Shown here: in pieces, positions 1,579-51,140 of the stretch
Layout of the letters: the number at the start of each line of letters is the position of its first letter
Position numbering within the stretch: position 1 is the stretch's first letter
Source: Staphylococcus phage Machias
Direction: 5' to 3' (one strand)
Length of the DNA stretch: 64,000 bases
Sequence record: MW349128.1
Program-made: the position numbers and the translations under genes
The notes under the pieces: generated by a model
Told to the model about the DNA's origin: nothing
Databases searched by the model: none
What the model saw: only the letters and a program-made list of their open reading frames with translations

Positions 1579-2560
1579 AAACTATATACGTTTCATTAAG
1601 ATTTTTGAAAATTATAAATCTTAAATGATACTAATGCCTACGAAAAATCGTGTGAACTCATACTAAAGGGGTGTCTAATTATAATAATTAGGCTAACGGT
1701 CATAGCAGTTAATTATGCTGGTAAGAGAGACTAAGTCCTATTAAATTGATAGGATAGAGTTAATACCGTGCCAAGCTTTATACTATTCATAGCTTCTAGA
1801 TGGGAGCTTGATAAAATGAAAGAAAATGAAATATTTAAACAATTAGAAGAATTTCCAGACTATGATTTTGGTAGTCATGGAACTATAATATCTTATAAGA
1901 CTAAAAATCCTAGAAAAATTATACCCAAGATTGATAAGAATGGTTATCATGAAGTAGGATTGAGAGATTATACAAATAAAAGAAAATACAGAAAAGCACA
2001 TAGACTTATTCTATTAGCACATAATTATATAGAAAATTCAGAAGATATGCAAGTAAATCATATAAATGGTAAACCAGATGACAATCGTTTATCTAATTTA
2101 GAATGGTGTACATCTAAAGAAAATATGAAACATGCATATAATATTCTTAGTAAAAATAAAGATAATAATAAATTTAAAATAGAAGTTTTGATTAAAGATA
2201 AAAATGATAATATTTTTAATTTTGAATCTATGAGTAAAGCTTCAGTATTTATCAAAAGTTCTGTTGGTGGTCTAAGATCTTTCTGGGTTAGAAGAAAAAG
2301 ACCTACAAATGAATTTATTAAATATAAAGATTATGATATAATGTTTAAGCCTAGTGAAAACTGGATTAAAGAATATGGAAAAGAAATTGTTTAAAGTTAT
2401 GAATAGTAAATTGAAGGTGTAGAGACTATCGAAAAGAAAGTTTAATTACTTTACTTAGTAGAGTAGGTCAGAGATTAGTACTGATCGAAGTGCATGGCAT
2501 ATTATTTTAAATAATATGAAGATATAGTCCACTCATTATAGAAATATAGTGGTTAAAGTG
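1579..2560 (+). mobile_element. Group I intron nrdE-I1 (~980 nt) carrying an HNH homing endonuclease ORF
   Basis: Interrupts NrdE between GGGVG and ISLSNLRA; R-like GTAGAGACTATCG (~2420) and S-like AAGATATAGTCC (~2518-2529) elements, P7 pairing GACTA/TAGTC; 3' end ...aaagtg| ~31 nt after S; internal HNH ORF. Confidence 0.7.
1768..2394 (+). CDS. Intron-encoded HNH (HNH_3 / AP2-like) homing endonuclease; true start may be M at ~1813
   Basis: HGTIISYKT...NGYHEVGL...KAHRLILLAHNYIENSEDMQVNHINGKPDDNRLSNLEWCTSKEN is a classic HNH motif of I-HmuI/I-TwoI-type phage endonucleases; lies inside the nrdE intron. Confidence 0.7.
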   Translation: MPSFILFIASRWELDKMKENEIFKQLEEFPDYDFGSHGTIISYKTKNPRKIIPKIDKNGYHEVGLRDYTNKRKYRKAHRLILLAHNYIENSEDMQVNHINGKPDDNRLSNLEWCTSKENMKHAYNILSKNKDNNKFKIEVLIKDKNDNIFNFESMSKASVFIKSSVGGLRSFWVRRKRPTNEFIKYKDYDIMFKPSENWIKEYGKEIV

Positions 2561-2683
2561 ATTAGTTTAAGTAATTTACGTGCTGACAATGATCCAATTA
2601 AAGGTGTTGAAGGTGCAGCTTCAGGTGTAGTTCCAGTTATGAAAGTATTTGAAGATACTTTATCATATGTAAATCAACTGGGT
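2561..2683 (+). CDS. nrdE: NrdE exon 2 (41 codons: ISLSNLRADNDPIKGVEGAASGVVPVMKVFEDTLSYVNQLG)
   Basis: Not in the ORF track; translation aligns with the universally conserved RNR large-subunit segment (NLSRLRA...GVVPFMKVFNDTARYVDQGG in E. coli NrdA); bridges exon 1 to exon 3 in frame. Confidence 0.75.
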
Positions 2684-2845
2684 TAATTTTAATGGCTCAG
2701 TATAAATATTGTTAATTGCTGGAAAAGTTTACAAGCTTAATCAGCATCAATCAAGATGATTGTTCAACGACTAAATATAATAATACTTATTAATAGTATA
2801 AGATATAGTCTAATCTATATGAATTTCATATAGTTAATATAAATG
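2684..2845 (+). mobile_element. Mini group I intron nrdE-I2 (~162 nt, ORF-less)
   Basis: P ATTAATTGCTGG (2712-2723), Q TTAATCAGCATC (2746-2757), R GTTCAACGACTAAAT (2762-2776), S AAGATATAGTCTAAT (2800-2814); ends ...ataaatG| at 2845; splices VNQLG to QRNGAGALYLNIFH. Confidence 0.7.
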
Positions 2846-4300
2846 CAACGTAATGGAGCTGGAGCTCTTTATTTAAATATTTTCCATAAAGATGTAGTAA
2901 AATTCTTAGATACTAAGAAAGAAAATGCTGATGAAAAAGTAAGATTAAAAACTATTTCATTAGGTTTAACAGTTCCAGATAAATATTATCAATTAGTTAA
3001 AGAAAATAAATCATTATATACATTTAGTCCATATGACATTAAAAAATATTACGATTTAGATTTCGATAGTATTGACTTTAATACTTATTATGATATCTTT
3101 GTAGATGATAAACGTATTAGTAAAGAGAAAATGTATGCTCGTGATTTAGAAACTACTATTAGTAAATTACAACAAGAATCTGGTTATCCTTATATCATTA
3201 ATATTGATACAGCTAATAGAGCTAATCCAATTAGTCATGGTACAATTAAAATGAGTAACTTGTGTAGCGAAATTCTACAAGTACAATACCCTTCATTAGT
3301 TGACGATAATCAACAATATGTTAAAACAGGAACAGACGTTTCATGTAATTTAGCTTCAACTATTGTACCTGGTTTAATGAAATCAAAAGACTTTGGTAAA
3401 TCAGTTGGAACTATGTTAAGAAGTTTAAATTCAGTAGCAGAAAAATCTAATATTGAAGCTGTACCTACAGTTAAGAAAGCTAATGATCTATTCCATACAG
3501 TTGGTTTAGGTGCAATGGGATTACACACTTATTTAGCTGAAAACCATATTCAATATGGATCAGAAGAATCTAAAGACTTTACTAATATTTATTTCATGTT
3601 ATTAAACTATTGGACATTAGTTGAATCAAATAAAATTGCTAAAGAAAAAGATGAGTCATTCTATTTATTTGAAAAAACTGAATATGCTGATGGCTCTTAC
3701 TTTGATAAACGTTATATTGGTAAAAATATTCAACCACGTACTGAAAAAGTTAAAGAATTATTTGAAGATATCTTTATTCCATCTGATAGTGATTGGGAAC
3801 AATTAAGAAATAATATTGTTATGGACGGTCTATACAATCAAAATAGATTAGCTGTAGCACCTAATGGTTCTATTGGTTATGTTAGAGAAGTATCACCTTC
3901 AATTCACCCTATTGTTGAATTAATTGAAGAGCGTGTAGAAGGTAAAACAGGTACTACTTTCTATCCAGCACCAGGTATTACACCAGACAACTTTGAATAC
4001 TTTAAGAAAAATGCATATCAACTGGATATGAGAGATATGATTGATTTATATTCAGAAGCTCAATATCATGTAGACCAAGGTATTTCAATGAATATTTACT
4101 TAATGAATGAACTTGATCCAGATATATATGAATGGAAAAAAGATTCTTTAGATAAAGAAACTACTACTCGTGATATTAGTAGATTACGTAACTATGCTTA
4201 TAGTAAAGGTATTAAATCTATGTATTATACTCGTATTTATTCACCAGACCATGATTCTCAATCTCAAGGAATAGTTGAATGTGAATCTTGTTCTATCTAA
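2846..4300 (+). CDS. nrdE: NrdE exon 3 (C-terminal ~485 aa)
   Basis: ALYLNIFHKDVVKFLDTKKEN..., NLCSEI (active-site Cys region), C-terminal CESCSI tail typical of class I large subunits. Confidence 0.85.
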   Translation, partial: QRNGAGALYLNIFHKDVVKFLDTKKENADEKVRLKTISLGLTVPDKYYQLVKENKSLYTFSPYDIKKYYDLDFDSIDFNTYYDIFVDDKRISKEKMYARDLETTISKLQQESGYPYIINIDTANRANPISHGTIKMSNLCSEILQVQYPSLVDDNQQYVKTGTDVSCNLASTIVPGLMKSKDFGKSVGTMLRSLNSVAEKSNIEAVPTVKKANDLFHTVGLGAMGLHTYLAENHIQYGSEESKDFTNIYFMLLNYWTLVESNKIAKEKDESFYLFEKTEYADGSYFDKRYIGKNIQPRTEKVKELFEDIFIPSDSDWEQLRNNIVMDGLYNQNRLAVAPNGSIGYVREVSPSIHPIVELIEERVEGKTGTTFYPAPGITPDNFEYFKKNAYQLDMRDMIDLYSEAQYHVDQGISMNIYLMNELDPDIYEWKKDSLDKETTTRDISRLRNYAYSKGIKSMYYTRIYSPDHDSQSQGIVECESCSI

Positions 4301-11040: not shown

Positions 11041-13202
11041 TAATAATTTATTCTAGAGTATATGTGACATAATGTTATAATATCTAAATTCTCAGTTTCA
11101 TTCAATAATCTGTCTTTCCAATTTTCTCCGAGATCGTATATTGTTTCACCAATTTCACTTTCAGTAAAATTCTGTAGCGGAACTAATTTAGCGTCATACT
11201 TATTAAATTTGTTAATATATCCATCATAAGTATAATCTTGACTCAGATATTTAATGGATTCAAATACAAAAGGTTTAAATATCATATATCTATCAAATTG
11301 CATATCATCATGTATCATTAAAATTTTAGGTAAATAATGAGATTTTATTGGGAAAGAAATATCTAAATTCTGTATTGGATTTTTATATCTAATATCGAAT
11401 TCTAATTTTCTAGTGTTATAATCAAATTCATTAATAGCATAATATATAGGAGGTTTTTCTATATAAAACTCAATATTATCTTCAGTATCTATATATTCAC
11501 TAATACTTCTAAATGATCTTGATTTTTCACCATCAATATTATTTAATTCATCATCATTATTTGTTTCTACATAATCCTTAAATATGAAATAATGATCTTT
11601 AAGATTAGGGTATAATAATGCTTTTGGATTGACATCTGAATGTTTTTCAATGGTATTTGAATTTATTATCAATGAGTCAAATAAAAAATTATTTTCATCA
11701 GACACTGTTATTTTAATTTCATTTTCTTTTTTCAGATATACTTCTTTAATACGATCATCTATACCTATATCAGTATTTCTCTTATATAAAGATAATGTAC
11801 ATAAATCATTATGATCTCCATATACTTTAGCTAAGTAATTTTTACCATTTATACTAATTATTGCTTCTTCTTTTTTATTATTAACTTCATTCCTATTTTT
11901 TCTTCTAAACAGTAAATTGAATGTGTACATTCCGGATTCAGTTAATTTGATTTCATTTTTAAGTGTACCTGTTAAAATTGTAAATTTATTGTTCATTCTA
12001 TTAACTTCATCAATAGAAGTTAATTTACCATCTATCTTTACAGTTTCTAAAATATTTCCAGTACCCATATTTAATGAATCATTATCTACATAAAAATCAC
12101 TCATTGGAATTATAGTACGAGTGCCAATCTTAAAGTCGTTATAAGTTTTAACATAAAAAGGATTTTTGGATTCAGGAACTTCAGTCTCTTGAAGTATAAT
12201 AATATCTATATCATTATTTTTAGTAGAGAATCTTTCATCGTATTCAAATTTAAACGTATGTTTTCCTTTTTCCAAATACAATGGTACTTCTTCATAAAAT
12301 TCATTTTCTGAATCTCTATAAAATTCTAATATAGATCTATTCCATATAAATTCCCTATCTGTCGGAGATCTAAAATAGTACCCTACATTATCTACAAATA
12401 CTTTGTTCACTGTACCATTACTAAAATGGTTTCCATTTTTACATCTAATTTCATAATAAGAAGAATTAGGAATATAAATGTTCATTTCCAATATTCCATC
12501 CTCAATAGTTACATAACCTTCTCCAAGAAATCTATCATATCCTGATTTTCTTTTATAAGCTCCATCAAAGTTACTTTCCCTTGTTTTATATATATCACCT
12601 AGATATGCATCATAAAATATCCTACCGTCATCTAATAATCCTTCATGTATTAGTCCATCTATAATTTCAGATTCTTTTAATACTTTACGATTATAAGCAT
12701 AATCTTTAGGATACTTTCTATTATCTTGATATATTGGTGGGTAAGGTTCGATTTTCACTTCCTTTCTTTCTATACTATTAAAAGACAAATCTTCATATTC
12801 TATATTCCCTATGAAGTTTGTGTCATAAATTCTCTCTGTTTTACCTAAATAATTATAGAATATAGTAAATAAGTCATATTTTAATTCACCAATAATTTCA
12901 TAAGGTCTTTCTTCATATACTAAAATATCTGAAGAAATATCCTCTAATCTAAAGGTTGGATTCTCTAAACCATATTCACTTTTGATATAATCTTCTGATT
13001 TTGGAATATCAAGTGTATTATCTTCATTAAATGTAAATTTATTATATTCCTCAGAATTAGATTCCACTCTTAATATTAATTTATCACTTTTCTTTGTTTT
13101 AGTTTCGATTAAAGTTTTATTTTCATTATCTTTAATTTTAGTTATTACAATGTCTCCAGAATTGTGTTTATCAATTAATTCTTCTATTCTATATAATTTC
13201 AT
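11040..13202 (-). CDS. hypothetical protein (720 aa), leftward virion/tail module
   Basis: Long ORF, last gene of the minus-strand block. Confidence 0.5.
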   Translation of the reverse strand: MKLYRIEELIDKHNSGDIVITKIKDNENKTLIETKTKKSDKLILRVESNSEEYNKFTFNEDNTLDIPKSEDYIKSEYGLENPTFRLEDISSDILVYEERPYEIIGELKYDLFTIFYNYLGKTERIYDTNFIGNIEYEDLSFNSIERKEVKIEPYPPIYQDNRKYPKDYAYNRKVLKESEIIDGLIHEGLLDDGRIFYDAYLGDIYKTRESNFDGAYKRKSGYDRFLGEGYVTIEDGILEMNIYIPNSSYYEIRCKNGNHFSNGTVNKVFVDNVGYYFRSPTDREFIWNRSILEFYRDSENEFYEEVPLYLEKGKHTFKFEYDERFSTKNNDIDIIILQETEVPESKNPFYVKTYNDFKIGTRTIIPMSDFYVDNDSLNMGTGNILETVKIDGKLTSIDEVNRMNNKFTILTGTLKNEIKLTESGMYTFNLLFRRKNRNEVNNKKEEAIISINGKNYLAKVYGDHNDLCTLSLYKRNTDIGIDDRIKEVYLKKENEIKITVSDENNFLFDSLIINSNTIEKHSDVNPKALLYPNLKDHYFIFKDYVETNNDDELNNIDGEKSRSFRSISEYIDTEDNIEFYIEKPPIYYAINEFDYNTRKLEFDIRYKNPIQNLDISFPIKSHYLPKILMIHDDMQFDRYMIFKPFVFESIKYLSQDYTYDGYINKFNKYDAKLVPLQNFTESEIGETIYDLGENWKDRLLNETENLDIITLCHIYSRINY

Positions 13203-13236
13203 AATTTTAGTTCCTTTCAGTTATGTTAATTTTAAA

Positions 13237-13809
13237 TTAAGTAAACATATTCAATCCCGGATTATTTGGATGGGGATTATATTGGGATTTATATCCATAA
13301 ATTGCATCATCAATTTGTTGTTGAAAAACTCTTCCTTTAATTACTTGCATACTTCTAGAATATTGAGTTTTCATATTAATTTGAGCTTTATCAATAATGG
13401 ATAGTTGATCTCTTCTAATTCCTGCTAAGCAATCAATATAAGATAATAATCCTGTATTAAATTTCATTCTTTGGAATGATTTAGAAGCCATTAAGTTTGG
13501 ATACATATCTCTAATATTAATAGATACAGTAATTTCTCTTGGGAAACCATCTGCAGTCCATGTACCTTCTTCACCACGAACTATATTCATTGAAGTTATT
13601 ATACCTGTATTACATTCAAATCTACCAGGACAATTAGCTCTAATAATAAACGGTTGCTTATAAGAGAATATTGAATCTTGTAAAGGTAAAGCTAATACTA
13701 ATAATGAAAGAAATGGTAAATATACATTGTCAAATATAGATTGTGGATCTCCATAAGCACTATAGAATTTAAATTCTAGATTATAAGTACGGTCAAAAGT
13801 TGAATTCAT
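13237..13809 (-). CDS. hypothetical protein (190 aa) immediately downstream of the IStron-like element
   Basis: ORF with a weak RBS (caggtttggATG). Confidence 0.45.
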   Translation of the reverse strand: MNSTFDRTYNLEFKFYSAYGDPQSIFDNVYLPFLSLLVLALPLQDSIFSYKQPFIIRANCPGRFECNTGIITSMNIVRGEEGTWTADGFPREITVSINIRDMYPNLMASKSFQRMKFNTGLLSYIDCLAGIRRDQLSIIDKAQINMKTQYSRSMQVIKGRVFQQQIDDAIYGYKSQYNPHPNNPGLNMFT

Positions 13810-13814
13810 CCAAA

Positions 13815-14005
13815 CCTGGTTTGTTAAATCTTGATTTTATATATTAAATATAAAGGCAAGACCTTGTATAAAATACACTTGGCTCAGTGACTAACGTATA
13901 AGGGAACCCTTATACTCCTTGTAAAGCTAATCGGACATTAGCTTATCACCCGTTTATCGTCTCCCGCTACCCGCAGGCGACTCTCATATCTTTTATTTTG
14001 TGAGA
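13815..14005 (-). ncRNA. Candidate TnpB guide (omega/right-end) RNA scaffold
   Basis: Only markedly GC-rich, stem-rich stretch in the region; stems read on the minus strand (as transcribed): AAGCTAAT/ATTAGCTT, GTATAAGGG/CCCTTATAC; lies directly 3' of the tnpB stop, where IS605 omega-RNAs map. Confidence 0.4.
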
Positions 14006-15199
14006 TTAAACATATTTTAAATCTAGAATATTTTTAGCTGCATTTAAATCTCTATCAAGAACTACATCACAATTAGGACAATCATGAGTATCATCACCTA
14101 AAACTAATTTCTCTTTATTAGTTCTAACATAACCACATGATGAACATGTCTGTGTAGTCTTTTTCTTAGTAATAATATTTAATTCATTATCATAAAAATT
14201 AGATTTAAATTTTAATTTTTCTAAAAAATCATACTTACCAAATCTTCTATTAGAACGTCTAAGATTTCTGAATCTATCAGATATTTTATGTGGATATGGT
14301 TCTATATTGATTACTTTATAATTTTTAACTAACCAATTAGTAATTTTGTCCCTATGATCTTCCAACATATCATATTCTCTATTATAAGACTTTCTTAATT
14401 GTTTTAAAAGTTTGTAATATGATTTTGAATAATATTTTTTTCTATCTAATTTAGATTTAATTTTTTCAGTTTTTCTTTCTTGTTTCCATAGAATATTCGG
14501 TATTTTAAATTCAAATACTTGACCGTTTGAGTCTACAGCAGCTAAAGGAGTTTTTATCCCCATATCAATACCAATTGAATAATTATTTTCTCTCTGTTTC
14601 TTATAATTGATTATCTCATAAGTTATAGAGATGTAGAATTTTTCATTCTTTCTGCTTATGGTGTAATATTTAAAATTAATATCGTTAGAGTTAATAAATT
14701 TTAAAGATTCCTTAGTTTTAATAACAAAAGGTTTAATTCCTTTCATTGCAGAAACTCTTATCCATTTTTTAGATAAAAATTTTACAGGTAAACTTAGTTT
14801 ATCTTTAACTATAAATCTAAATGAATCGTTAGAATATTTTTTCTTTTTAAATTTAGGTTTAAATTTATCACTATCTATATAATTTTTAGATTTTCTAGCT
14901 TTACTCTGCATTTCATAGTATTTAGAAAAAGTCTGATTTAGATCTTTTAAAGCTTCTTGTCTAACCATACTATTAACTTCATAAAGATAAGGATAATTTC
15001 CAGAATTTTGAATTTCGTTGTTTAATTTCTTTTGAAAATCAAATCCACTAAATTTCTTATCATCATCAATATTCTGATAATCTTCTAAAGCCATATTCCA
15101 TACTTTTCTTCTTACACCAAAGCATTTATTGAAATAATTCTTTTGGTCTTGATTTGGGTATATTCTAGTTTTGAAAGATTTAACTATTCCTTTTTTCAT
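14006..15199 (-). CDS. tnpB: TnpB (IS200/IS605-family OrfB) RNA-guided-nuclease-like protein, 397 aa
   Basis: RuvC-I GIDMGIKTPLAAV, zinc finger CSSCGY...CPNCD, RuvC-III DRDLNAAKNI; strong RBS aggaggtg; no tnpA present. Confidence 0.85.
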   Translation of the reverse strand: MKKGIVKSFKTRIYPNQDQKNYFNKCFGVRRKVWNMALEDYQNIDDDKKFSGFDFQKKLNNEIQNSGNYPYLYEVNSMVRQEALKDLNQTFSKYYEMQSKARKSKNYIDSDKFKPKFKKKKYSNDSFRFIVKDKLSLPVKFLSKKWIRVSAMKGIKPFVIKTKESLKFINSNDINFKYYTISRKNEKFYISITYEIINYKKQRENNYSIGIDMGIKTPLAAVDSNGQVFEFKIPNILWKQERKTEKIKSKLDRKKYYSKSYYKLLKQLRKSYNREYDMLEDHRDKITNWLVKNYKVINIEPYPHKISDRFRNLRRSNRRFGKYDFLEKLKFKSNFYDNELNIITKKKTTQTCSSCGYVRTNKEKLVLGDDTHDCPNCDVVLDRDLNAAKNILDLKYV

Positions 15200-15249
15200 T
15201 GTTTAATTTCACCTCCTAATCATATTATATAAATATGTTAGGAAATTCC

Positions 15250-15300
15250 TGATATGAATTTTTTATCAGTATTTTATACAATCTCTAAATTAGTAATTTA
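15250..15300 (-). repeat. IS605-type left-end subterminal hairpins
   Basis: Perfect palindromes CTGATAtgaattttttATCAG and CTCTAAATTagtAATTTAGAG just 5' of tnpB. Confidence 0.4.
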
Positions 15301-15304
15301 GAGC

Positions 15305-15410
15305 ACAGACTATATCATACTCATTGATATGAGTGAATATATTTAGTCGTTGGACAAGTCTTATTGACTTGATGCTGATTGAGATAATAATCTATTCCAG
15401 CAATTAATAT
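15305..15410 (-). mobile_element. Group I intron catalytic core (mini-intron family copy) on the minus strand
   Basis: Reverse complement contains ATTAATTGCTGG, AATCAGCATC, GTCCAACGACTAAAT, ATGATATAGTCT in the same order and spacing as the other mini-introns. Confidence 0.65.
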
Positions 15411-15442
15411 TCTTTGCTAATTAAAATTACTTTTAATAGGGA

Positions 15443-16354
15443 CTATTTGTGTGAATAATCCGGATAATACATTGATGCACCATCTAAATGTTCCATAAAG
15501 TTACCTACAATACCACCAATAACTGGCATATTTGCTACCATATCATTAATACTATCTTTAATAGTTCTAGTAATTTTACCTAAAATAGAAGCTCCACCAA
15601 TACGAGCCATTTCTTTTTGTTCTCGTATTTCTTGGTTTTTATTATTAACTTGAGAAGCAATATCAGATTGATTATATTCATGCATTGCAGATTCTGATAT
15701 ACTAGTTGATTTATCTGCATAGTAAGCTAGTCCATAGTTTTTATCATCTTGTAGAGATCCACCTAGATCAAATGATCCTTTTAAACCCATTGATGCATGA
15801 ACTTGAGAAGCCATAGTTTGTACGTATTTATAATATTCAGCCATTTTAGGTTCAAAGCTTATCATACGACCATCTTTAGTATTACCGATACCTACTAAAG
15901 ATAAACCAGAGTTTACTAATCTATCCATTCCTTCACCAAAACTCCATAATTTACCTTCTCCTGGTTTACCAAATAATTTACCATTTAATTTAGGCATACC
16001 CGGCATTATAAATACTAAAGGTAAATCTAATTCAAATGTTCTTTTATATATTCTTCTATTAGGATCATCTAAACTAGAATAGTACATAGGCATTCCAAAT
16101 ACATCTAGTTCACCTTTAACATTTCTTAATTGTTTTTTATCTTTAGCATTTTTATCTGTTAAATATTCAGTTGCTTGTCTTTGATTACCCAAAGCATCCA
16201 TAAAAGCACCAGTATCTTTTTGAGTAGGATCATATTCATGATAGTCATAATCACCTTTTTTCTCATCAGCTTGAGGTATTAAAGCCATATCATCATCTGC
16301 CACTTTTAAAGGTTCTTGTTCCTTAGACTCTTTTTTATCTTTTTCTTCAGCCAA
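15443..16354 (-). CDS. hypothetical protein (303 aa; TTG start) of the leftward virion module
   Basis: ORF from the track; its stop lies ~9 nt before the predicted 5' end of the IStron-like intron. Confidence 0.5.
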   Translation of the reverse strand: MAEEKDKKESKEQEPLKVADDDMALIPQADEKKGDYDYHEYDPTQKDTGAFMDALGNQRQATEYLTDKNAKDKKQLRNVKGELDVFGMPMYYSSLDDPNRRIYKRTFELDLPLVFIMPGMPKLNGKLFGKPGEGKLWSFGEGMDRLVNSGLSLVGIGNTKDGRMISFEPKMAEYYKYVQTMASQVHASMGLKGSFDLGGSLQDDKNYGLAYYADKSTSISESAMHEYNQSDIASQVNNKNQEIREQKEMARIGGASILGKITRTIKDSINDMVANMPVIGGIVGNFMEHLDGASMYYPDYSHK

Positions 16355-16455
16355 TTTATTTCACTTCCTTTTAATAATAAAGAGGATATGACACATAATA
16401 AATGTCATATCCCCAATTTAATTTATTTACTATAAATTTATGTTGCATCAAAATA

Positions 16456-19400
16456 TTATTTTCCTGAGAAAACAGGTATAGCTGGTCTAACGTCAATAAC
16501 AAATCTATCTCCATAAGAATCTCTAATTGCTTCTTGTAAATCTTGATTACCTGTAGATGGATCTTGACTTGAACCATCAGGAGTATAAGGATTATTAGGA
16601 TCATTAGGATTATTAGGGTTGTTTGGATTATTAGGATTTGATTGATTATCATTTCCATTATTATTGCTATTATTTCCATTAGAACCATTAGATCCATTAG
16701 AACCATTATTTCCATTAGATCCATTTTGACCGTCTTTACCGTTATTAATAATATTAGGATTTTCTTTAATAATTTTTTCAAGCTCTTTTTGAATATCTTT
16801 AATAATTACATTACCTTTAGAATCTACTAAATCACCTTTATTATTAATAATAGTATTAGAAATATTTGTTGTATTTCCATCTTTATTAATATTTTTACCT
16901 TTAAAGGACATATCTTTAAGTTGTTCTAACATTTTGGCAGTATTTTTATCAATATTGCTTGTATGTTTAATTATATTATCTAAATCCATACGTTTTTGTG
17001 GATCTACTTTCATAGGTCCTTTATTTTCATAATTTACTTTAGAATTATTATAATTATTAGTAATATTATAGATATTTCTTACTGTATTATTATTACCTTG
17101 TATAGTTTGATTTGTAATGGAATTATTATTAGTTGTAGGTTTACCATTATTATAATTATTATTGATAACCGTAGAACTATTATTTCCTCCATTATTAATT
17201 ATACTAGAATTATTCTGGTTATTATTAACATTTCCTTGACTTCCTGAAGATGATTGATTGTTACCATCAGCTCCAGAACTATATGAAGGTGATGAACCAT
17301 CTTTACCGTCTTTTCCATCAGAACCATCTTTACCAGATGATCCTTCTGAATCGTCAGATGATGAACTTGATCCACTTGAAGATCCAGATTCTGTAGCTTC
17401 CTTACCTGCTTTAGCTTTAAGTTCAGCCTGTTGTTCTTCATCTATCTTTTTAGCTTCTTCATAGTCAATTCCATAAATTCTAGCATAACGTTTCATTAAT
17501 CTATCATTTAAAGCTTCTTGTTCTTCTTCATCCATACGGTTATCATCTCTACCAGTAATAGAACCGTACCAAGTACCATTTTTGAAACTATATTCAGAAG
17601 CTCCAGCAGAAGATCCATTAGAGTCTCCTCCTTCACTATCGCTTCCACCTATTTTATCACTACCATCTAGAGGTTTACCTGTATCATCAGGACCACCGCC
17701 GCCATATCTCATTGTAATACCAATTTGTAATCCCATTTTTTGGTATTTATTTGCAGGAGTTACAGCAACACCATGACCATAATATGATTCAACTTGTTTT
17801 CCTCCACCTATATACATAGTAACATGGTTATCGTTATCACATAAAGTAATATCACCAATTTTTTTCTTAGTGCCTTTACTTATTTTTCTAAATTTAGTAC
17901 CACCATCTCTAAAAGTAAAAGTGGTAGCATTAATATCCATTTCTAAACCAGCTTTTTTGAATGAACGAGCAATTAAACTAGAACAGTCAAATGAATTTTT
18001 ACCTTGTCTATTTGACTGAGAGTATGTTGCACCATCTTGAGCTATTGCCCATTGTACTGCTTGTTTAATTTTATCTCTTTCAGATCCACCGGATCCTCCA
18101 CCTTTACCATAAACTCCACCAGTAATAGTAGGTTTTTCTAAAACTAAACCAGTTTTTCCAACTTTTTTATTTTTATTAGATGTAGATGATACCATATTTG
18201 CAAATTGATTAACGTTCGTATCACTATAAACAGTACTAGAACCTCCACCTTTAGCTTTAGTGGATTTCTTAGATGAACCCCCTAGTTTATCTAACCATTT
18301 TTTAGCGTTTGATTGTCTTTCAGGAATAACTTTAACTCCTGCACGTTCATACAAATTCTCCCATACAACTGTTGCTTCATCAACATTCTTAGCTTTCTTA
18401 ATAGCAGACCAAGCAGCAGATTCAGATCCTTGAAGTTCATACCACATGAAGTCTAACTGAGCATCAAGATCAGACCATTTCTTACCTTTCTTTTCAGCAA
18501 ATGCTTTAAGATTATCTTTACGATCATCCCATTGAGCTAGTCCTTTACCTCCGACCCAACCAGAGTTTTGTTCGGCACCGGGATCCATTTTGGATTCACG
18601 TTCAAAGTTACCTAATATACCTGCTATCTGATGATCTTCTAACCCTTTTTCAGCAAAGAAATTCCATACTTTAGATGCAACATCTTTACCATCAACACTT
18701 TCTGCTCCTCCATCAGATGATCCTTCTGAAGAAGAACTTCCTGATGAACCGGCCATGAATCCTGCCATAATATCATTCATCATTCCGCCAAGTTTATCAA
18801 ACCAATCACCAATTTTGTTTACTACTTCACCATCAGGATCAGTTATATCTTTTTTAGATTTTTTCTTTTTCTTCTTACTTAATAAAGAATAGAAAGGAGA
18901 TAATCTTAACATAGTTTCAGCCAATTTTTTAGGAGCTTTTTTAAGTTTACTCATTAAATTATTAGGCATCATTTTATGCATTTTTTCACTAATTTTACCC
19001 ATGATAGATAAAGGAGAATTTTTCATTACTCCATTAACATCTTTCTCGATATTATCTTTAGTTTTATTAGTTGACTCTTCTACTTGTTTTTTAGCATCTT
19101 TACTAGCTTTATCAGACATTCCTTGCATTTCAGCCATTTCTTTCTTAGCTCTTTCAGATGCATGATCTTCAATACCTTCTTGATAAGAACCTAATTCTTC
19201 TTTACTAGCTTCCACCATTTCACGACTTTGATTAGACATATCTTCTTCATGAGAAGAGAATTTGTCATCAAGGAATCCTGATAAGTTTTTAGCTAAGCCT
19301 ATTCCACCTTGAATAAGATTAGAAGTAGCTCCGACCATATTACTAATTCCTTTTCCAGCCATAGCTAAAGGTGCCATTAATAACATTGAAGCTCCACCTA

Positions 19401-22200
19401 CAGCTTTTTTAATTAAACCACCAAAACCTTCAGATTTTTCTTCCATCATACTATCAGTAGAATCACCAAATCCTTTAGCCATTCCAGTAGTTTTTTGTAC
19501 CATATTCATACCTAGACCAAAAGCAGGTTTTACAATTCCTTTATAAAGTCCAACTCCAGCTAATCCCATTAAAGGAACTTGAGCTAATAAAGGATTGTCT
19601 TTAATAAAACTTCCAATTAATGAAGAACTATCTTTATCACCAGTTAATTTAGAATCAACTAAAGGATCAACACTAAATTTAGCATTTTCACCGTTAGGTT
19701 GCTCTGAATCTAATTTCTCTTGTTCTTTTTTCTGTTTTGCAGGGTGATCATTAAAACCTATAAAGCTTCCTAAAGTTTTAATTGGATGTTTAAGAGATTC
19801 AATTGGATGTGCTATAGTACTCATTATTTCAGGAGCAGACAATAATATAGATAAAGGTAATCCTACACCAGTTGCGGCCAGTCCTACTCTTGAACCTACT
19901 TTCAAACCAGCTTTAACTATACCTTTACCGGCTTTAGATCTCATTAATTTACTTCCAACTTTACTTGCACCAAATTTACCTTTAGCTTTATTTCTTAGTT
20001 TAGAACGTAATCCTCTTCCAGCACCAGATAACAAAGCTCCACCAGCAGCAAATTTACCGGCAAGTGATTCACCAGCACCTATAACACTTTTACCAATTTT
20101 AGTATTAGCCATTTTACTATCTAATACTTTTCTTTTAAGTTTATCTTTATCAATATCTTTAATTTTATCTTTAGCTTTTTCTTCTATTTTATCTTTAATC
20201 TCATCTTTTAATGGATTATCTTCTTTTTCTTCTTGTTGTCTATTTACTTCAGAAGCATGAGCTTCATTACTATCTGAGATCAAAGTAGATTTTTGTTTAT
20301 CTTTATTATTTAAATTATTTCCATTATTAGAATTAGAAGAATTATTAGAATTAGAAGACTTAGTATCTTTAATATCATCCAATTTTTCTTTAATTTCATC
20401 AAATTTACTATCTTGTTTTTGACTATCTCCAGATACAATATTATTATTATCATTTTGTGAAGATTGTTGATTATTTTTTCTTACATCTAGTTTATCATTT
20501 ATTCTAGATACAATATTTTTAATTTCACTTATATCGCTATTGATAATATTAAAATTAATGTCAGAAAATTCATTGTTACCTTTAGAAGCATATGACTTAG
20601 GTTTTTGACCTTTATCATTAACTGCATTTATAGTACTTCCGCCAAGATTTTTTCTAATTGATTTAGATTTTTGATTCAATTGCATTCTAGCTTTAGTTAA
20701 ACTAGTTTTTACTTCTTTATCTTCAAATAGCTCTTCTAAAAGACTATTTACATTAGATGACTTAGTTTTAACTTTATCACTATCTTTAGAACTATTAACA
20801 TTTTCACTAATAATATTTTTTACTAATGATTTATAATCTTTAGAGTCTATATTTTTATCTTTAGCTTTACTTTCAACTCTTTTAAAGAATTCAGAACTTT
20901 CAATAGTTTTATCTATAGATTTTTTAATTTCATCATTAATAGTTTTAGATGTTTTAAAAGATCCTGAATCATAATCATAATGAATTTCTTCACCATCTTC
21001 AGAAGTTAAACCAACTATTTTAGATAAATAACCAGGAATAACTGTATTAATAGTACTATGTGTTTCAACATCAAAAGCTACTCTTTCATTTTTATTCTTT
21101 TTATTTGCTGTTGAAATTCCACCATCTATATTATTAAATAATTTATCTATAAGTTTGCTTTTCTGTTTATCTATGAAATCACGATTAGTTTTCTTCTTAT
21201 CTTCTTTATTTTCATCTTTAGTAAATACCGTTGACATATTTGTTAGCTTTTCACTAATTTTATCACTGTTTATTATATCAAAAGCTTTACCTTTAGCACT
21301 GTCTAAAAGTCCACCTTGTATGCCTTTAGTTCTACTCCCAATAATATCTTTAACTAATTCAATACCTTGTTTTTTAGCAAATTCTTTAGCTTTATCTTTA
21401 AAACCATCTGCTTGACTACCACTTAGTATATTAGAAAGAGTTATATTAGATAAGAACAAATCTTCTAAAGAATTACTATTTTTAATTTCACTTATATTTT
21501 TTACAGATGTATTATTTCTAATATCATTACTAGTTTTGATTAAACCTGTTAATCCTTCAAATAAATTCTCTCTAACATTATCATTAGTTTCTCTCATGTA
21601 ATGAAGAGTTTCCATTAAATTATTAAAACCTGTGGCATTAATTTGAGATAAATTAGATATAGAAGAAGTTAAAAGAGCAGAAGATTTAGCTGAAGATGAA
21701 TTATCATTAATTACTGTTGTTGATGAAATGACTTCAGATTTATTACTTTCTTCTTCATCAAAATCATCGAAAGAAAAATCTCCTATTTCATCATTATCTG
21801 AATTTTCATCACTCATATCAAAATCATCAAAGCTACTGAAATCAAAATCATCGCCCATATCCATTGTTCCGCCATCTAAATTGGATGATTTATTTAAAGC
21901 TCCTTTATCTATGATCGTTTCACCAGTTTTTAAAGTTCTTTTAGTACTTTTAAGAGCTTCTTTAGATAAATCTTTCCCAGTTTCAGTTAACTTCTTAAAT
22001 TGTTCTTTTCTATTATCTTTAACTTCTTTGATAGCTTTTAAAGGATTATTGTTATCAATAAGTTTTTTCATATTGTTTGATTTCATGTTATTCAAATTCT
22101 TTTTGAATTCATTATCAATGTATTTTCTAGAAGAATTAGAAGAGGAGTTCCTATTGAACTCTCTTTCTAATTTCTTATTATTAAATTTATCTTTAGCCAA
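16456..22200 (-). CDS. Giant (1914 aa) tape-measure-like virion protein with lysozyme-like and CHAP/NlpC-P60 peptidoglycan hydrolase domains
   Basis: Gly-rich hydrophobic segments typical of tape-measure proteins; GLAQWDDRKDNLKAFAEKKGKKWSDLDAQLDFMWYEL (phage tail lysozyme-like); NSFDCSSLIARSF...HVTMYIGGG (Cys/His CHAP-like); low-complexity S/G/N/D linkers. Confidence 0.75.
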   Translation of the reverse strand: MAKDKFNNKKLEREFNRNSSSNSSRKYIDNEFKKNLNNMKSNNMKKLIDNNNPLKAIKEVKDNRKEQFKKLTETGKDLSKEALKSTKRTLKTGETIIDKGALNKSSNLDGGTMDMGDDFDFSSFDDFDMSDENSDNDEIGDFSFDDFDEEESNKSEVISSTTVINDNSSSAKSSALLTSSISNLSQINATGFNNLMETLHYMRETNDNVRENLFEGLTGLIKTSNDIRNNTSVKNISEIKNSNSLEDLFLSNITLSNILSGSQADGFKDKAKEFAKKQGIELVKDIIGSRTKGIQGGLLDSAKGKAFDIINSDKISEKLTNMSTVFTKDENKEDKKKTNRDFIDKQKSKLIDKLFNNIDGGISTANKKNKNERVAFDVETHSTINTVIPGYLSKIVGLTSEDGEEIHYDYDSGSFKTSKTINDEIKKSIDKTIESSEFFKRVESKAKDKNIDSKDYKSLVKNIISENVNSSKDSDKVKTKSSNVNSLLEELFEDKEVKTSLTKARMQLNQKSKSIRKNLGGSTINAVNDKGQKPKSYASKGNNEFSDINFNIINSDISEIKNIVSRINDKLDVRKNNQQSSQNDNNNIVSGDSQKQDSKFDEIKEKLDDIKDTKSSNSNNSSNSNNGNNLNNKDKQKSTLISDSNEAHASEVNRQQEEKEDNPLKDEIKDKIEEKAKDKIKDIDKDKLKRKVLDSKMANTKIGKSVIGAGESLAGKFAAGGALLSGAGRGLRSKLRNKAKGKFGASKVGSKLMRSKAGKGIVKAGLKVGSRVGLAATGVGLPLSILLSAPEIMSTIAHPIESLKHPIKTLGSFIGFNDHPAKQKKEQEKLDSEQPNGENAKFSVDPLVDSKLTGDKDSSSLIGSFIKDNPLLAQVPLMGLAGVGLYKGIVKPAFGLGMNMVQKTTGMAKGFGDSTDSMMEEKSEGFGGLIKKAVGGASMLLMAPLAMAGKGISNMVGATSNLIQGGIGLAKNLSGFLDDKFSSHEEDMSNQSREMVEASKEELGSYQEGIEDHASERAKKEMAEMQGMSDKASKDAKKQVEESTNKTKDNIEKDVNGVMKNSPLSIMGKISEKMHKMMPNNLMSKLKKAPKKLAETMLRLSPFYSLLSKKKKKKSKKDITDPDGEVVNKIGDWFDKLGGMMNDIMAGFMAGSSGSSSSEGSSDGGAESVDGKDVASKVWNFFAEKGLEDHQIAGILGNFERESKMDPGAEQNSGWVGGKGLAQWDDRKDNLKAFAEKKGKKWSDLDAQLDFMWYELQGSESAAWSAIKKAKNVDEATVVWENLYERAGVKVIPERQSNAKKWLDKLGGSSKKSTKAKGGGSSTVYSDTNVNQFANMVSSTSNKNKKVGKTGLVLEKPTITGGVYGKGGGSGGSERDKIKQAVQWAIAQDGATYSQSNRQGKNSFDCSSLIARSFKKAGLEMDINATTFTFRDGGTKFRKISKGTKKKIGDITLCDNDNHVTMYIGGGKQVESYYGHGVAVTPANKYQKMGLQIGITMRYGGGGPDDTGKPLDGSDKIGGSDSEGGDSNGSSAGASEYSFKNGTWYGSITGRDDNRMDEEEQEALNDRLMKRYARIYGIDYEEAKKIDEEQQAELKAKAGKEATESGSSSGSSSSSDDSEGSSGKDGSDGKDGKDGSSPSYSSGADGNNQSSSGSQGNVNNNQNNSSIINNGGNNSSTVINNNYNNGKPTTNNNSITNQTIQGNNNTVRNIYNITNNYNNSKVNYENKGPMKVDPQKRMDLDNIIKHTSNIDKNTAKMLEQLKDMSFKGKNINKDGNTTNISNTIINNKGDLVDSKGNVIIKDIQKELEKIIKENPNIINNGKDGQNGSNGNNGSNGSNGSNGNNSNNNGNDNQSNPNNPNNPNNPNDPNNPYTPDGSSQDPSTGNQDLQEAIRDSYGDRFVIDVRPAIPVFSGK
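16560..16740 (-). repeat. Short tandem repeats (CCATTAGAWCCATTAGAACC-type units) encoding (GSN)n and (PNN)n
   Basis: Visible 9/15-nt periodicity; protein C-terminus GSNGNNGSNGSNGSNGNNSNNNGNDNQSNPNNPNNPNNPNDPNNP. Confidence 0.5.
17300..17620. repeat. ~300-bp dispersed repeat copy A, shared between the two giant genes (partner at 22680-22940)
   Basis: ~85-90% nucleotide identity; encodes EYSFKNGTWYGSITGRDD(N/R)RMDEEEQE(A/E)LNDRLMKRYA(R/K)IYGIDYEEAKKID... in both proteins. Confidence 0.6.
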
Positions 22201-44406: not shown

Positions 44407-45430
44407 ATGACAACAGAATTAAAGAATAAAGAAGAAAGAAAAAGAGCTTTAACTGGATATTTAGAACAATTGGTATGGATGGTTCAAAAGAATAATCCTG
44501 ATTTTGATAAAGAAGAAATATTAAAAGAATGTAGAGAATTTGTAAAAGAAAATGTTAAACCTGTTATGACAGAGGTATCAGGTCAAGAAATGAATGTTGA
44601 TTCTTTATTACGTACAGTTATTAATTCAAATTTAATAGTAACTGGATCAGGTTCGATTTATCAAACACAATCACAAAGAAAAAATTTAAATGCAGAGATG
44701 TTAAAAGACTTCATTGATTCACGTAAAGTAGCTAAACATAATATGTTTATAAGTAAAGGTGTAGACGATGTTAAATATCATAAATATATGAATGAACAAA
44801 AAACAATTAAGATCTTGGCTAATAGTTACTATGGTGCTATGATACAAGGAAATAGTATTTTCTATGATCCTTATTCAGGACCTGCTATCACATATAGTGG
44901 TGTTGATATTGTTACGACTTCAGCAATAGCTTTAGAAAGATTTATAGGTAGTAAAATATTCTTTATGAATATTAGTGAGATTTATAATTATATCGTAAGA
45001 ATATGTCAAGAAGAATATAAAGATCATGATATTAAGATAAATTCAGTTCCTACTGATAATGAAATATTAAAAGGTTTATTGGATAACGTAGAATATAATT
45101 TCTCTGAAGATGAAGAAAATGATTTAAAAGAATTCTTTAGTAATTTAACTCAAGATGAGAAAAATAGAGTTTATTTTAAAAATAATCTTTATGGTTTATT
45201 AGATCACACTGATATATTTGATAATAAAATTAGTAAAATGACAGGTAGAGAAGATTTCTTAGATCCGAACGAACCACCTGAAGATATGATACCATTATTA
45301 GATGAATTATTTGATATATTAGAAGACTGGGTTATTTATAATTATCAAGATTACAATAGAATGTATAGAATGAATTATAAAAAACGTAGAAGTGTACTTA
45401 CAATCGATTATGATAACATGGTCGCTGCTT
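44407..45430 (+). CDS. Family-B DNA polymerase, C-terminal half, exon 1 (motif B to motif C); no exonuclease/motif-A region in this gene
   Basis: Kx3NSxYG motif KILANSYYGAM; following IFYDPYSGPAITYSGVD (compare RB69 FRYYDLRNATAITTFGQ); motif-C-like VLTIDYDNM at the very end; strong RBS taggaggt means it is an independent start. Confidence 0.65.
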
Positions 45431-45591
45431 AAAGTAATTTAAGTTGATTCACATTATTAATTGCTGAGAAAGTATTTATTAAATTAATCAGCATCAATCA
45501 ATATGATTGTTCAACGACTAAATATAATGATACTCATAAAGAGTATATGATATAGTCTATTTTATATTTAAAAATATAATATTAAAGACAG
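45431..45591 (+). mobile_element. Mini group I intron polB-IA (3' end uncertain: 45591, 45603 or 45612)
   Basis: 5' aaagtaatttaagttgat..., P TTAATTGCTGAG, Q TTAATCAGCATC, R GTTCAACGACTAAAT, S ATGATATAGTCTAT; the in-frame continuation has no stops. Confidence 0.6.
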
Positions 45592-45840
45592 ATAGTAACT
45601 TCGTACATTTAGATCCATTATATCAAAAAATGAAAGAAAAGAAACCTGAAGATTTCCCTATTGCAGAAAATGGTTTAGAAGATAAATTAGAACAACGTGT
45701 AGGTAATATATCTATTATTAACTATCAAATTACTAAATTGCTAGAATTATCTTATCATAGATTCTGTAAAGATTTAGGATTAGAAGATGAACATTTAGGT
45801 GTTATATCTATGAAAAATGAGTATGTAAATGCTCCAGTAT
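45592..45840 (+). CDS. DNA polymerase B exon 2 (~83 aa)
   Basis: Open frame ...LDPLYQKMKEKKPEDF...NEYVNAPV joining exon 1 and exon 3 in frame. Confidence 0.55.
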
Positions 45841-45996
45841 ACAGTAATGTGTATTAGTAAATATTATTAATTGCTGAGACAAAATAAAATTAATCAGCAT
45901 CTTCAAATAATGAAGTTCAACGACTAAATATAATAATTCTTAATAATAAAGAATATGATATAGTCTAGTCTTATATTTAAAATATAAGTATAAACG
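45841..45996 (+). mobile_element. Mini group I intron polB-IB
   Basis: 5' acagtaatgtgtatt..., full P/Q/R/S set; 3' end ...ataaacG|; the E2(t)+tt+E3 junction reads ...NAPV-F-LLDKQ in frame. Confidence 0.65.
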
Positions 45997-46697
45997 TTTT
46001 ACTTGACAAACAGTTAACAACAGATAAAAAGAAAACTTATGCTTCATCAGTAATTCAACAAGAGGGTAATTTAGTTCAACCACCAGACTTAGATGTTAAA
46101 GGTATGGCTATTAGAAAAGTTAATACTAATAAACGTATTAGAGAATTATTTACTGAAATATTACAAAAAGATATCTTAGAAAATAAAACTGGAATTGATA
46201 GAATTGGAATTATACGTAAATATAAAGAAATTGAAGAAATGATTAAAAAATCATTAGAGAATGGTGATATTGAATTCTTAAAACCTGGTAAAGCTAATAA
46301 CGCAGAAGTATATAAAGATCCTTATACACAAATGAATTATAGAGCAGCTTTATCATGGAATTTAATGTATCCAGATAAAGAAATATCTCTTCCAGCAAAT
46401 ATCTTAATGGTTAAATTAAATATTAAATCATTTGGAGATATTAAGGATAAAGTTGATGATGAAGAATTATTAGATAAATTTAGAGAAGTATTTAGAAACG
46501 AAAGATTAGTTAAAAATGGAATGAATGTAATTGCAGTTGAAGGTAATACAATTCCTGAAGAATTTAGACCTTTTATTGATTATGATTCAATGATAGAAGA
46601 TCATATTAAACCAGGTAAAGATATTATTGAATCTATTGGAGTTAAAGTGTTAGAATCTTCAAATAGTTCTTTCGTATCAAATATGGTTAAATTTTAA
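45997..46697 (+). CDS. DNA polymerase B exon 3 (C-terminal thumb; KGxxxRK = KKRY-like motif)
   Basis: ...PPDLDVKGMAIRKVNTNKR... in the same frame as the track ORF 46104-46697, open upstream to the splice site. Confidence 0.6.
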
Positions 46698-49805: not shown

Positions 49806-50979
49806 ATGAAAGTAGATATGATAGATATTGAACAAGTCATAACTGATACAAATGCTAAAGAAGTAACCAATCCTGTATTTTTCGATTCAGGTATACTACC
49901 AAAAGAAGATGGTTTATTTTCATATGATATATTTGGTTTAATAGGTACTCCTGAAAGAAAAACCAATTTAGGTTGGATTAATTTAAAGGATAAATACCTT
50001 AATCCGGTGGCTTATAAAGCATTAAAAGATTTAGATAAAAATATTGAACTATGTATTCAGGGTTCAGAGTATTTTAAAGTAGAAAAAGGTCAATTAGTTC
50101 CTTCAGAAGATGGAGATACTGGACTGAATTTCTTATATGAAGTATTTGATGATTTAAAATTTAGAAAGAATGATTCTCGTATTAGATCTGAAAAAATTGA
50201 TATGATTAAAAATACAGATAAGCAAAAAATATTTGTAGATAAATGGCTAGTAATACCTGCTTTTTATAGAGACTTTAATCCTAATGAAACTTCAGGAGAA
50301 ATTCAAGATACTGAAGAAGTTAATAATATGTATTCTTCTATTATACGTTCTGTAGATGCTATTAGTTTTAATTCTTTTGGTTTTATTGCTAACAGTACTA
50401 AATATAATATACAAAATACATTATTTGAAATATATCAGAAATTTACTTCAGGAGAATTATCAGGTAAAACTGGTTTTATGCAAAAACGTATATTGGGTAA
50501 AACAGTAGATAATAGTACTCGTGCAGTTATTTCTTCACCTAAAATTAATTCGAATAGATGGGATGAAATGCAGATAGAGTTTGGTGAGTTAGGTGTACCA
50601 TTAACTCAATTAGTTACCTTATTTTTACCATTCTTTAATAAGTATATAATTGATTTTATTGAACTTCATAAAGATGCTTTCCAAACAGCTACTGGAAATG
50701 ATGAGAAAGAATTATCATTAGAAGAAGTGTATGAACAATTCGATGATAAATCTATTAAGAATATGCTAGAATTCTTTATTAAAGATCCTAATGAAAGATT
50801 TAGTCCTATATATGTAAATGATAGAGAAGGTAAACGCCATAAAGTTAAATTATTTGAAAAAACTTTGGGTAGAGATTTTACTGTAATTGATTTACTTTAT
50901 ATTGCTGCAACCGAAATAGTAGAAGATAAGCATGTTATGTATTCAAGATATCCGATTAATAAAATGGTCGCTGCTTAAA
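49806..50979 (+). CDS. Multisubunit RNA polymerase beta-prime-like subunit (N-terminal half), exon 1
   Basis: LPKEDGLFSYDIFG (compare KPERDGLFCERIFGP), GWINLKDKYLNPV (compare GHIELASPTAHIW), KRILGKTVDNSTRAVISSP (compare GKRVDYSGRSVIVVGP); no Zn finger, as in phiKZ/AR9-type phage RNAPs. Confidence 0.7.
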
Positions 50980-51140
50980 GTGATTTAAGTTGATAAACAT
51001 TGTTAATTGCTGAAATACTATTAATAAAGTTAATCAGCATCAATTAAATATAATTGTTCAACGACTAAATGCAATGATACTATTTAATAGTATATAATAT
51101 AGTCTAATTTATATAATACTTATATAAATATAATAAATGC
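50980..51140 (+). mobile_element. Mini group I intron rpoC'-IC (3' end uncertain, 51139-51156)
   Basis: 5' aaagtgatttaagttgat..., P/Q/R/S set, S at ~51100-51108, ...ataaatG at 51139. Confidence 0.6.

Follow-up and report, generated by a model that had tools for sequence, protein, structure and literature searches.

A probable TnpA-less IStron in a virion protein gene of Staphylococcus phage Machias, with a 190-nt 3′ module predicted to serve as both omega RNA and intron end

What is the role of a short GC-rich island immediately 3′ of a tnpB gene in a genome otherwise rich in A+T? The window analyzed here comprises 64,000 nt of Staphylococcus phage Machias, a lytic jumbo phage of 274 kb, and has a mean GC content of 25.2%. 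A preliminary description had singled out ~190 nt beyond the tnpB stop codon as a GC-rich, structured candidate for the scaffold of an omega RNA. The compositional contrast is real: positions 13816-14005 are 37.4% GC (98.4th percentile of 190-nt windows), and the core of the island, 13881-13990, reaches 48.2% (99.99th percentile of 110-nt windows). The island lies on the tnpB (minus) strand, as described; it begins directly downstream of the stop codon and stops precisely at the right boundary of an inserted element. Its left limit, given as 13815, was off by one base, with the true boundary falling between 13816 and 13815. Comparison with related phages and contigs makes it likely that 13816-15457 (minus strand) is a TnpA-less IStron within a virion protein gene and that its 190-nt island is a dual-purpose RNA, acting as omega RNA and as the 3′ end of a group I intron.

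The limits of the element were read from phages that lack it. The closest genomes in the phage collection, PB50 and AH12 (97% identity), are both without the insert, and the comparison of empty sites covers PB50, AH12, and MarsHill. In BLAST alignments, the flanking segments 13000-13815 and 15458-16500 abut at PB50 (L001) positions 1316/1317 with neither gap nor duplication. Junction sequences compared with PB50 render the boundaries unambiguous, reveal no target-site duplication, and delimit an insert of 1,642 bp (13816-15457, minus strand). On the gene strand, exon 1 closes with CCGGAU and the element opens with UAUUCACAC; the element closes with AACAAACCAG and exon 2 opens with GUUUGGAUG. 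The PB50 site is inside a single gene for a 491-aa "virion protein," which the Machias window displays as two ORFs of 303 and 190 aa. Joining exon 1 (15458-16354, minus strand) to exon 2 (13237-13815, minus strand) restores a 491-aa protein with 99.6% identity, free of gaps, to PB50 WPH64086. An in-frame ATG is present at 13809, 7 nt past the 3′ splice site and within exon 2, so gene callers list this exon as a free-standing 190-aa ORF. Unspliced transcripts might also give rise to a C-terminal fragment of the virion protein.

Read from 5′ to 3′, the insert opens with 258 nt that hold a compact group I ribozyme, continues with an intact tnpB (14006-15199), and closes with the 190-nt island. 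The ribozyme is 5′, TnpB is encoded 3′ of it, and the ends of the element coincide with splice sites; its removal regenerates the host ORF. The insert at 13816-15457 therefore has the architecture of an IStron. These elements are defined by a ribozyme that wholly precedes tnpB and a 3′ splice site at the opposite, right-hand end, and variants with only TnpB are common (PMC4227781; bioRxiv 10.1101/2023.11.20.567912). Given that the element is an IStron, the same 190 nt also constitute the 3′ end of a group I intron.

The ribozyme core (P1-P9) occupies 15283-15467 on the minus strand and matches Rfam RF00028 (Intron_gpI) over the full length of the model. The score, 32.1 bits (E 1.1e-6 in a 291-nt search), is below the gathering score of 50, whereas homologous introns in related elements exceed it (61.7 bits in L166, 61.4 in L157, and 51.6 in L005). 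Scanning the whole window at the gathering threshold misses the introns that it contains, and short stretches must be searched instead. The core retains the conserved P4/P6/P7 strings AAUUGCUGG, UCAGCA, CAACGACUAAAU, and GAUAUAGUC, arranged in the order AAUUGCUGG...UCAGCA, CCAACGACUAAAU, and GAUAUAGUC. The 8-bp P1 hairpin (15440-15461, minus strand; GGAU/UAUU-CACACA-AAUAGUCC, with the slash at the splice site) was read from the sequence and falls within the Rfam Intron_gpI alignment. There, GGAU of exon 1 pairs with GUCC of the internal guide sequence, and the last exon base, U15458, forms a U·G wobble with G15443 at the 5′ splice site. P1 also displays a compensatory change, from UAUU/AAUA in Machias to UGUU/AACA in phage LY01. 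At the opposite end, the element terminates in G13816, the last intron base and the 3′ splice site. The transcript is predicted to self-splice. A P10 pairing between exon 2 GUUUG and guide-sequence CAAAU can be drawn for Machias and was rejected as unconvincing in the LY01 copies.

The ORF at 14006-15199 (minus strand; 397 aa) is 100% identical to the deposited Machias "transposase" and contains OrfB_IS605, Cas12f1-like_TNB, and HTH_OrfB_IS605 domains (PF01385, PF07282, and PF12323, all above cut-off). The RuvC residues D212/E300/D384 and two CxxC pairs are intact. D212, D384, and the four zinc-finger cysteines are invariant in 32 homologues, and position 300 is Glu or Asp in all 32, such that the protein looks catalytically competent from its sequence. 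A Shine-Dalgarno sequence, AGGAGG, is located at 15212-15217 (minus strand); UAGGAGGUG is kept upstream of tnpB in most relatives, with GAAAGGUGGUG or GAGGGAGGUG in a few. A scan of the window for the HUH+Y (HUH+Tyr) motif, a crude approach, retrieved no TnpA, and no related element examined has room for tnpA (258 nt, tnpB, and 190 nt in Machias, with relatives spaced alike).

The preliminary description had proposed searching other genomes for the scaffold and had named loss of the segment at homologous tnpB loci as counterevidence. The search found the opposite: 17 related elements, found at 15 other insertion sites, carry the island along with tnpB, down to a TnpB identity of about 31%. Two close copies (LY01_a and LY01_b) reside in unrelated genes of LY01, with frames open across both predicted splice junctions, and the island is about 93% identical among the Machias and LY01 copies. 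LY01_a does not share the insertion site of the Machias element, as the flanks are unrelated. More distant TnpB relatives (48-31% identity) derive from metagenomic, viral, and genomic contigs, all with the 3′ module, and several elements are inserted in phage genes, including those for a prohead protease, a DnaB-like helicase, and a divergent DNA polymerase. Every relative examined has a group I core upstream of tnpB (by Rfam score for L166, L157, and L005; by motifs otherwise) and a 3′ module that has a hairpin at its start and a tail at its end. In most, the module reads GUCGCC-loop-GGGAGACGAUAAA and finishes with the tail AACAAGACAG, while the most distant relatives carry recognizable variants.

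A single-protein search of viral contigs with TnpB gave no relatives. The pattern GGGAGACGATAAAYG matched 210 loci in viral and metagenome collections; hairpin and tail occurred together only in known relatives, and the other loci were dismissed as chance matches. The TnpB loci of Clostridium phage c-st and Clostridioides phage HGP05 have no Rfam intron match at E<=0.01. Inspected by eye, their 3′ flanks bear no obvious resemblance to the scaffold, which makes these loci not useful as a direct model. The Machias TnpB is only about 25% identical to the TnpB of a C. difficile phage, whose element is without an Rfam-detectable intron. In the Waltera intestinalis contig that holds L005, further group I intron matches at 1971-2249 (49.1 bits) and 2523-2762 (32.4 bits) lie just downstream of the IStron, which suggests that introns cluster in this (pro)phage-like region as they do in the Machias window.

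Does the island form a defined RNA structure? Both stems named in the preliminary description exist on the tnpB strand, AAGCUAAU/AUUAGCUU at 13944-13924 and GUAUAAGGG/CCCUUAUAC at 13915-13896, and the GC-rich run that it quoted is the plus-strand image of a third hairpin, GUCGCCUGC-GGGUA-GCGGGAGAC, at 13981-13959. This nexus-like hairpin (SLa, 13959-13981, minus strand) begins 25 nt past the tnpB stop and is the most conserved part of the module. Its loop, GGGUA, spans 13972-13968, and the upper-stem pairs of its GUCGCC...GGGAGACGAUAAA framework covary. Downstream, helix H2 (13881-13950, minus strand) pairs GGU at 13950-13948 with GCC at 13883-13881 in the RNAalifold consensus, enclosing the two named stems (SLb and SLc, respectively) and a conserved GUUAGUCAC at 13895-13887. 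These are followed by SLd (UGUAU-UUU-AUACA, 13864-13877, minus strand), by the terminal AU-rich hairpin SLe (GGUCUUG..UUUAUAU-UUAA-UAUAUAAA..CAAGAUU, 13827-13863, minus strand), which is present in the minimum-free-energy and centroid folds, and by a 3′ tail, UAACAAACCAG, at 13816-13826 (minus strand).

Folding the island, as had been suggested, gives five stem-loops, but the energy of the single sequence is only mildly unusual (z = -1.93, with 9 of 200 shuffles as good), and the case for structure consequently rests on comparative data. RNAalifold on seven sequences returned four helices (SLa, H2, SLb, and SLc) in which 12 of the 22 consensus pairs stay paired through two-sided changes. For example, SLc reads GUAUAAGGG/CCCUUAUAC, GUGAGAGAG/CUCUCUUAC, and GUACAGAGG/CCUCUAUAC in the three close copies, and an internal U-A pair of SLe in Machias is G-C in LY01_a and G·U in LY01_b. 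G·U pairs are found only on the tnpB-sense strand in the 7- and 15-sequence alignments. Searches of 13790-14030 and 13000-16000 gave no credible Rfam match to the 3′ module at E<=10, a result of little weight either way; the scan of the whole window at the gathering threshold likewise returned nothing for the island.

The modest advantage of the fold over shuffled sequences would fit a chance GC-rich patch, or a terminator or mRNA-stabilizing 3′ UTR of tnpB. We regard such an origin as scarcely credible. The comparisons speak against it, since both the conservation and the compensatory changes extend to TnpB relatives of only 31% identity. Promoter and terminator scans also returned sites no more often than in shuffled sequence, with no terminator-like site at all, and production of the virion protein requires that transcription read through the island.

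A pseudoknot links the first hairpin of the module to its last bases. PK-1 comprises G13971, G13970, and U13969 (positions 2-4 of the SLa loop), and PK-2 comprises A13820, C13819, and C13818, just before the terminal AG. In an alignment of 15 distinct sequences, assembled by hand under one fixed positional rule, the 3 bp are paired in all 15 by means of four Watson-Crick combinations: GGU/ACC in Machias, L042, and L005; GUC/GAC in most sequences; AAU/AUU in L160; and GUU/AAC in L381 and L004. All three pairs are compensatory. Taking SLa and the pseudoknot together, 97.5% of cells are paired versus 74.9% in shuffles (none of 500 as high), and each of the eight pairs shows two-sided changes. Controls in which the 3′ partners were slid by 1-3 columns were 32-50% paired. 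The sequences compared do not include the flanks of the other Machias TnpB paralogues, P0003 and P0005.

A second pairing involves the same island. Just after P9 lies a 13-nt segment (UUGUAUAAAAUAC, 15269-15281, minus strand) that is a perfect complement of 13864-13876, ~1.4 kb away within the island (GUAUUUUAUACAA, 13876-13864, minus strand). The two would form the arms of a long-range helix enclosing the ORF, as IStrons are known to have (Tourasse 2014, PMC4227781). In 9 of 11 elements (7 of 9 distinct sites), the post-P7 region and the 3′ module have their longest stretch of complementarity at this same relative position, in unrelated sequences; for the remaining two, inspection by eye allows a weaker helix there (10-11 bp, or one mismatch). 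SLd and the 13-bp duplex use the same bases, so the island has two mutually exclusive folds. Competition between omega folding and splicing has been described in IStrons, the omega RNAs of which contain five stem-loops and a pseudoknot with a 3′ strand overlapping the 3′ splice-site nucleotides (bioRxiv 10.1101/2023.11.20.567912; PMC13521648). By analogy, the opposition of an omega-RNA fold and an intron fold in the island matches this published antagonism. The five stem-loops and the loop-to-3′-end pseudoknot of the window island likewise resemble the experimentally established omega RNA of CboIStron.

A rival account confines the island to a 3′ intron domain (peripheral helices, ORF-enclosing stem, and 3′ splice site) with no guide-RNA role, TnpB being a passenger or inactive. 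In its favor, the 3′ splice site is G13816, 13 nt of the island pair with the post-P9 region in a helix of conserved position, and tail nucleotides beside the terminal G typically serve in 3′ splice-site selection. However, the window contains at least six further introns of this ribozyme family that have no ORF, and these dispense with the module, showing no similarity to insert positions 1453-1642. The module is found only beside tnpB, and in every relative examined, and the catalytic and zinc-finger residues of TnpB are conserved. An exclusively intronic role is therefore unlikely.

The omega-RNA reading of the 190-nt island is instead supported by the sequence comparisons: the module (13981-13816) is on the tnpB strand, ends at the right boundary of the element, is co-inherited with tnpB, and has a scaffold of stem-loops with a pseudoknot. 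Covariation, on its own, cannot separate an RNA structure from one formed by single-stranded DNA of the top strand. The hairpins could accordingly be ssDNA signals of an IS200/IS605 right end, acted on by a TnpA supplied in trans. IS200/IS605 ends carry subterminal hairpins, and TnpA typically inserts without duplication next to a fixed pentanucleotide, which is CGGAT at each of the three close copies. Against this, no tnpA fits in the related elements examined, the crude HUH+Y scan of the window was negative, and five stems, a pseudoknot, and a helix of 1.4-kb range far exceed a TnpA end hairpin. Pairing to the internal guide sequence of the intron accounts for CGGAT equally well. We deem it very unlikely that the hairpins are DNA signals rather than RNA, although the two roles could coexist, by analogy with characterized IS605 elements.

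If the island is an omega RNA, as we favor, the guide would be encoded by whatever follows it. The preliminary description had anticipated a guide drawn from adjoining phage DNA near 13800, and similarity among the three close copies does end right after the terminal CAG. The phage sequence near 13800 is exon 2 of the split virion protein gene. Based on the guide lengths of characterized TnpB systems (about 16-20 nt), the predicted guide is the first 20 nt of this exon (GUUUGGAUGAAUUCAACUUU, 13796-13815, minus strand). On the 5′ side, the last bases of exon 1 are CGGAU (15458-15462, minus strand), and CGGAT abuts the element in all three close copies, each in a different gene; this pentanucleotide is a candidate TAM or target motif.

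The empty alleles of PB50, AH12, and MarsHill read CCCGAT or CCTGAT, that is, CCGAT or CTGAT in place of CGGAT. Their proline codon, CCC or CCT, is synonymous with the CCG of the intron-bearing allele and drops the G that belongs to the motif and to the P1 pairing. The lack of CGGAT in the known empty alleles makes present-day homing into them doubtful. One may speculate that the codon is a resistance allele or a trace of co-conversion.

For the Machias element, we infer transcription, splicing, TnpB binding, cleavage, and homing as follows. The element would be transcribed as part of the host virion gene, and each transcript would meet one of two fates. In the omega fold, SLa, H2/SLb/SLc, SLd, and SLe would build a roughly 170-nt scaffold, closed by the GGU/ACC pseudoknot before the terminal AG. 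TnpB would bind and process this scaffold, and the next ~16-20 nt of the transcript (exon 2, GUUUGGAUGAAUUC...) would become the guide, with the 3′ tail holding the junction of scaffold and guide along with PK-2 and the 3′ splice site. Guided TnpB would then cut intron-less alleles bearing a 5′ CGGAT beside the exon 2 target (GTTTGGATGAATTCAAC), and recombinational repair from an intron-bearing genome, for instance between co-infecting phages, would copy the element in, amounting to RNA-guided homing. In the intron fold, the 3′ arm of SLd would pair with the segment after P9, loop out tnpB, and bring G13816 to the ribozyme core, after which exons 1 and 2 would be ligated and the virion protein made. 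Because the two folds exclude each other, each transcript would become either mRNA or guide RNA.

A broader proposal, which we put forward tentatively and hold to be possible rather than probable, concerns the TnpB clade as a whole (about 31-81% identity). This clade may represent a mainly phage-borne IStron lineage that dispensed with its transposase, in which TnpB and omega RNA replace a homing endonuclease and spread the intron among co-infecting phages by RNA-guided homing. One and the same CGGAU would then constrain both the internal guide sequence and the TAM, and CCC/CCT would mark homing-resistant alleles.

Among known systems, the element behaves much like the group A IStrons, exemplified by CdISt1/CdiIStron of Clostridioides difficile, which combine a group I intron with IS200/IS605. 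In both, the whole ribozyme precedes tnpB and the 3′ splice site marks the extreme right of the element. Exon 1 closes with a U that forms a U·G pair in a continuous P1, there is no target duplication, insertion follows a pentanucleotide ending in GAT, and the element ends in CAG. The omega RNA, predicted in the case of Machias, belongs to the right end, and its guide begins where the intron stops. There are also differences. Group A flanks are T-rich (TTGAT/ATTAT/TTTAT), in contrast to CGGAT here; CCAG or ACAG replaces TCAG at the 3′ terminus (the fourth-last base being C or A, not T); and the ribozyme is unusually small, at about 175-185 nt and below the Rfam threshold. No member examined has TnpA, and the host is a lytic Staphylococcus jumbo phage.

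The experimentally characterized group B IStrons (BcISt1 and CboIStron; IS607-type) share the five stem-loops, the pseudoknot over 3′ splice-site nucleotides, and the exclusive folds. They also share a second copy of one arm of the ORF-enclosing stem, the 5′ one, placed immediately before its 3′ partner. Some group B elements are in phages (C. botulinum phages c-st and D-1873). These IStrons insert at GG-ending sites, end in CGG, and follow an exon ending in G, whereas the window junctions end in GGAU and CCAG, and exon 1 ends in U in filled and empty alleles alike. The Machias element also differs in having neither a serine-recombinase TnpA nor a core dinucleotide shared by its two junctions. 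Some distant relatives (L161 and L163) are group B-like, ending in CGG after a TGGG-like flank. Given the group A-like traits, the CGGAT flank, and the group B-like relatives, we file the element as an IStron without assigning a group.

Compared with the omega RNA (reRNA) of ISDra2-type TnpB, from plain IS200/IS605 elements, the module is likewise a right-end scaffold on the tnpB strand with a pseudoknot from an early hairpin to the 3′ end, a guide that would come from flanking DNA, and a candidate TAM that abuts the left end. In contrast to ISDra2, where the scaffold is largely inside the ORF, that of Machias is almost wholly downstream of the stop codon. It doubles as an intron 3′ end, and there is no sequence similarity or Rfam family match. 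The element also resembles phage introns with homing endonucleases (T4 td/nrdB, Twort orf142, SPO1, and AR9), which are self-splicing introns with their own nuclease ORF in essential phage genes and for which homing into intron-less alleles at co-infection is the expected lifestyle. In Machias, however, the nuclease would be RNA-guided TnpB instead of a LAGLIDADG, GIY-YIG, or HNH protein, the ORF follows a complete ribozyme core instead of occupying a peripheral loop, and target recognition would come from the 3′ flank of the intron itself.

Earlier publications cover IStrons, their omega RNAs, and the presence of such elements in Clostridium phages. In the part available to us, a 2026 review raises the possibility that TnpA-less IStrons spread by intron homing and cites no demonstration (PMC13565253). 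The novelty lies in the host, a lytic Staphylococcus jumbo phage; in a virion gene that had not been recognized as split; in the minimal ribozyme; and in a coherent clade that lacks TnpA and occurs mostly in phage-like contigs. The deposited annotation, a "transposase" between two "hypothetical" ORFs, can be corrected to one virion gene with a predicted self-splicing, RNA-guided mobile intron. This extends IStrons to lytic Staphylococcus jumbo phages and mostly phage-like metagenomic contigs. The compact scaffold, with its covariation-supported pseudoknot, would serve a TnpB of roughly 400 aa and could interest genome editing. Machias versus PB50/AH12 also offers a natural system for asking if TnpB can act as an intron homing endonuclease without a transposase.

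The published description of Machias reports introns in polymerase, protease, terminase, and gyrase genes; it mentions no transposase or TnpB and does not list the split virion gene (bioRxiv 10.1101/2020.12.14.422802). The repeated ORF-less introns of the window are in keeping with the large number of introns described for these phages. The window contains further features of note. A second GC-enriched stretch at 17225-17750 (39-41% GC in 150-nt windows) is inside the 1,914-aa ORF 16456-22200, the PB50 counterpart of which is annotated "tail lysin," and appears to encode a Gly/Ser/Asp-rich segment rather than an RNA structure. Two ORF-less compact group I cores of the IStron ribozyme family, at 45418-45605 and 45843-45986 (plus strand), occupy a 670-nt gap. 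The ORFs flanking this gap, 44407-45432 and 46104-46697, both match a divergent family-B DNA polymerase, and the polymerase gene therefore probably has at least three exons. Three tandem mini-introns of about 175-200 nt (~50962-51131, 51305-51480, and 51565-51762, plus strand) lie between ORFs 49806-50978 and 51913-52545. They score 22-34 bits against Rfam Intron_gpI, below gathering, and are invisible in a gathering-threshold scan of the whole window; AT-rich minimal introns of this kind would escape standard annotation. Near the start of the window, an HNH_3 endonuclease ORF (1768-2394, plus strand) is followed by an intron core (2704-2843, plus strand) directly upstream of a ribonucleotide reductase (RNR) large-subunit ORF (2843-4300) that starts at profile position 75. 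The region 1768-4300 thus has the appearance of an RNR gene interrupted by an intron and accompanied by a homing endonuclease of the protein type, next to the intron family that includes the TnpB-bearing member. Beyond Machias, the intron family is highly expanded in the phage clade of LY01 (OR836606), AH12, PB50, MarsHill, and Madawaska.
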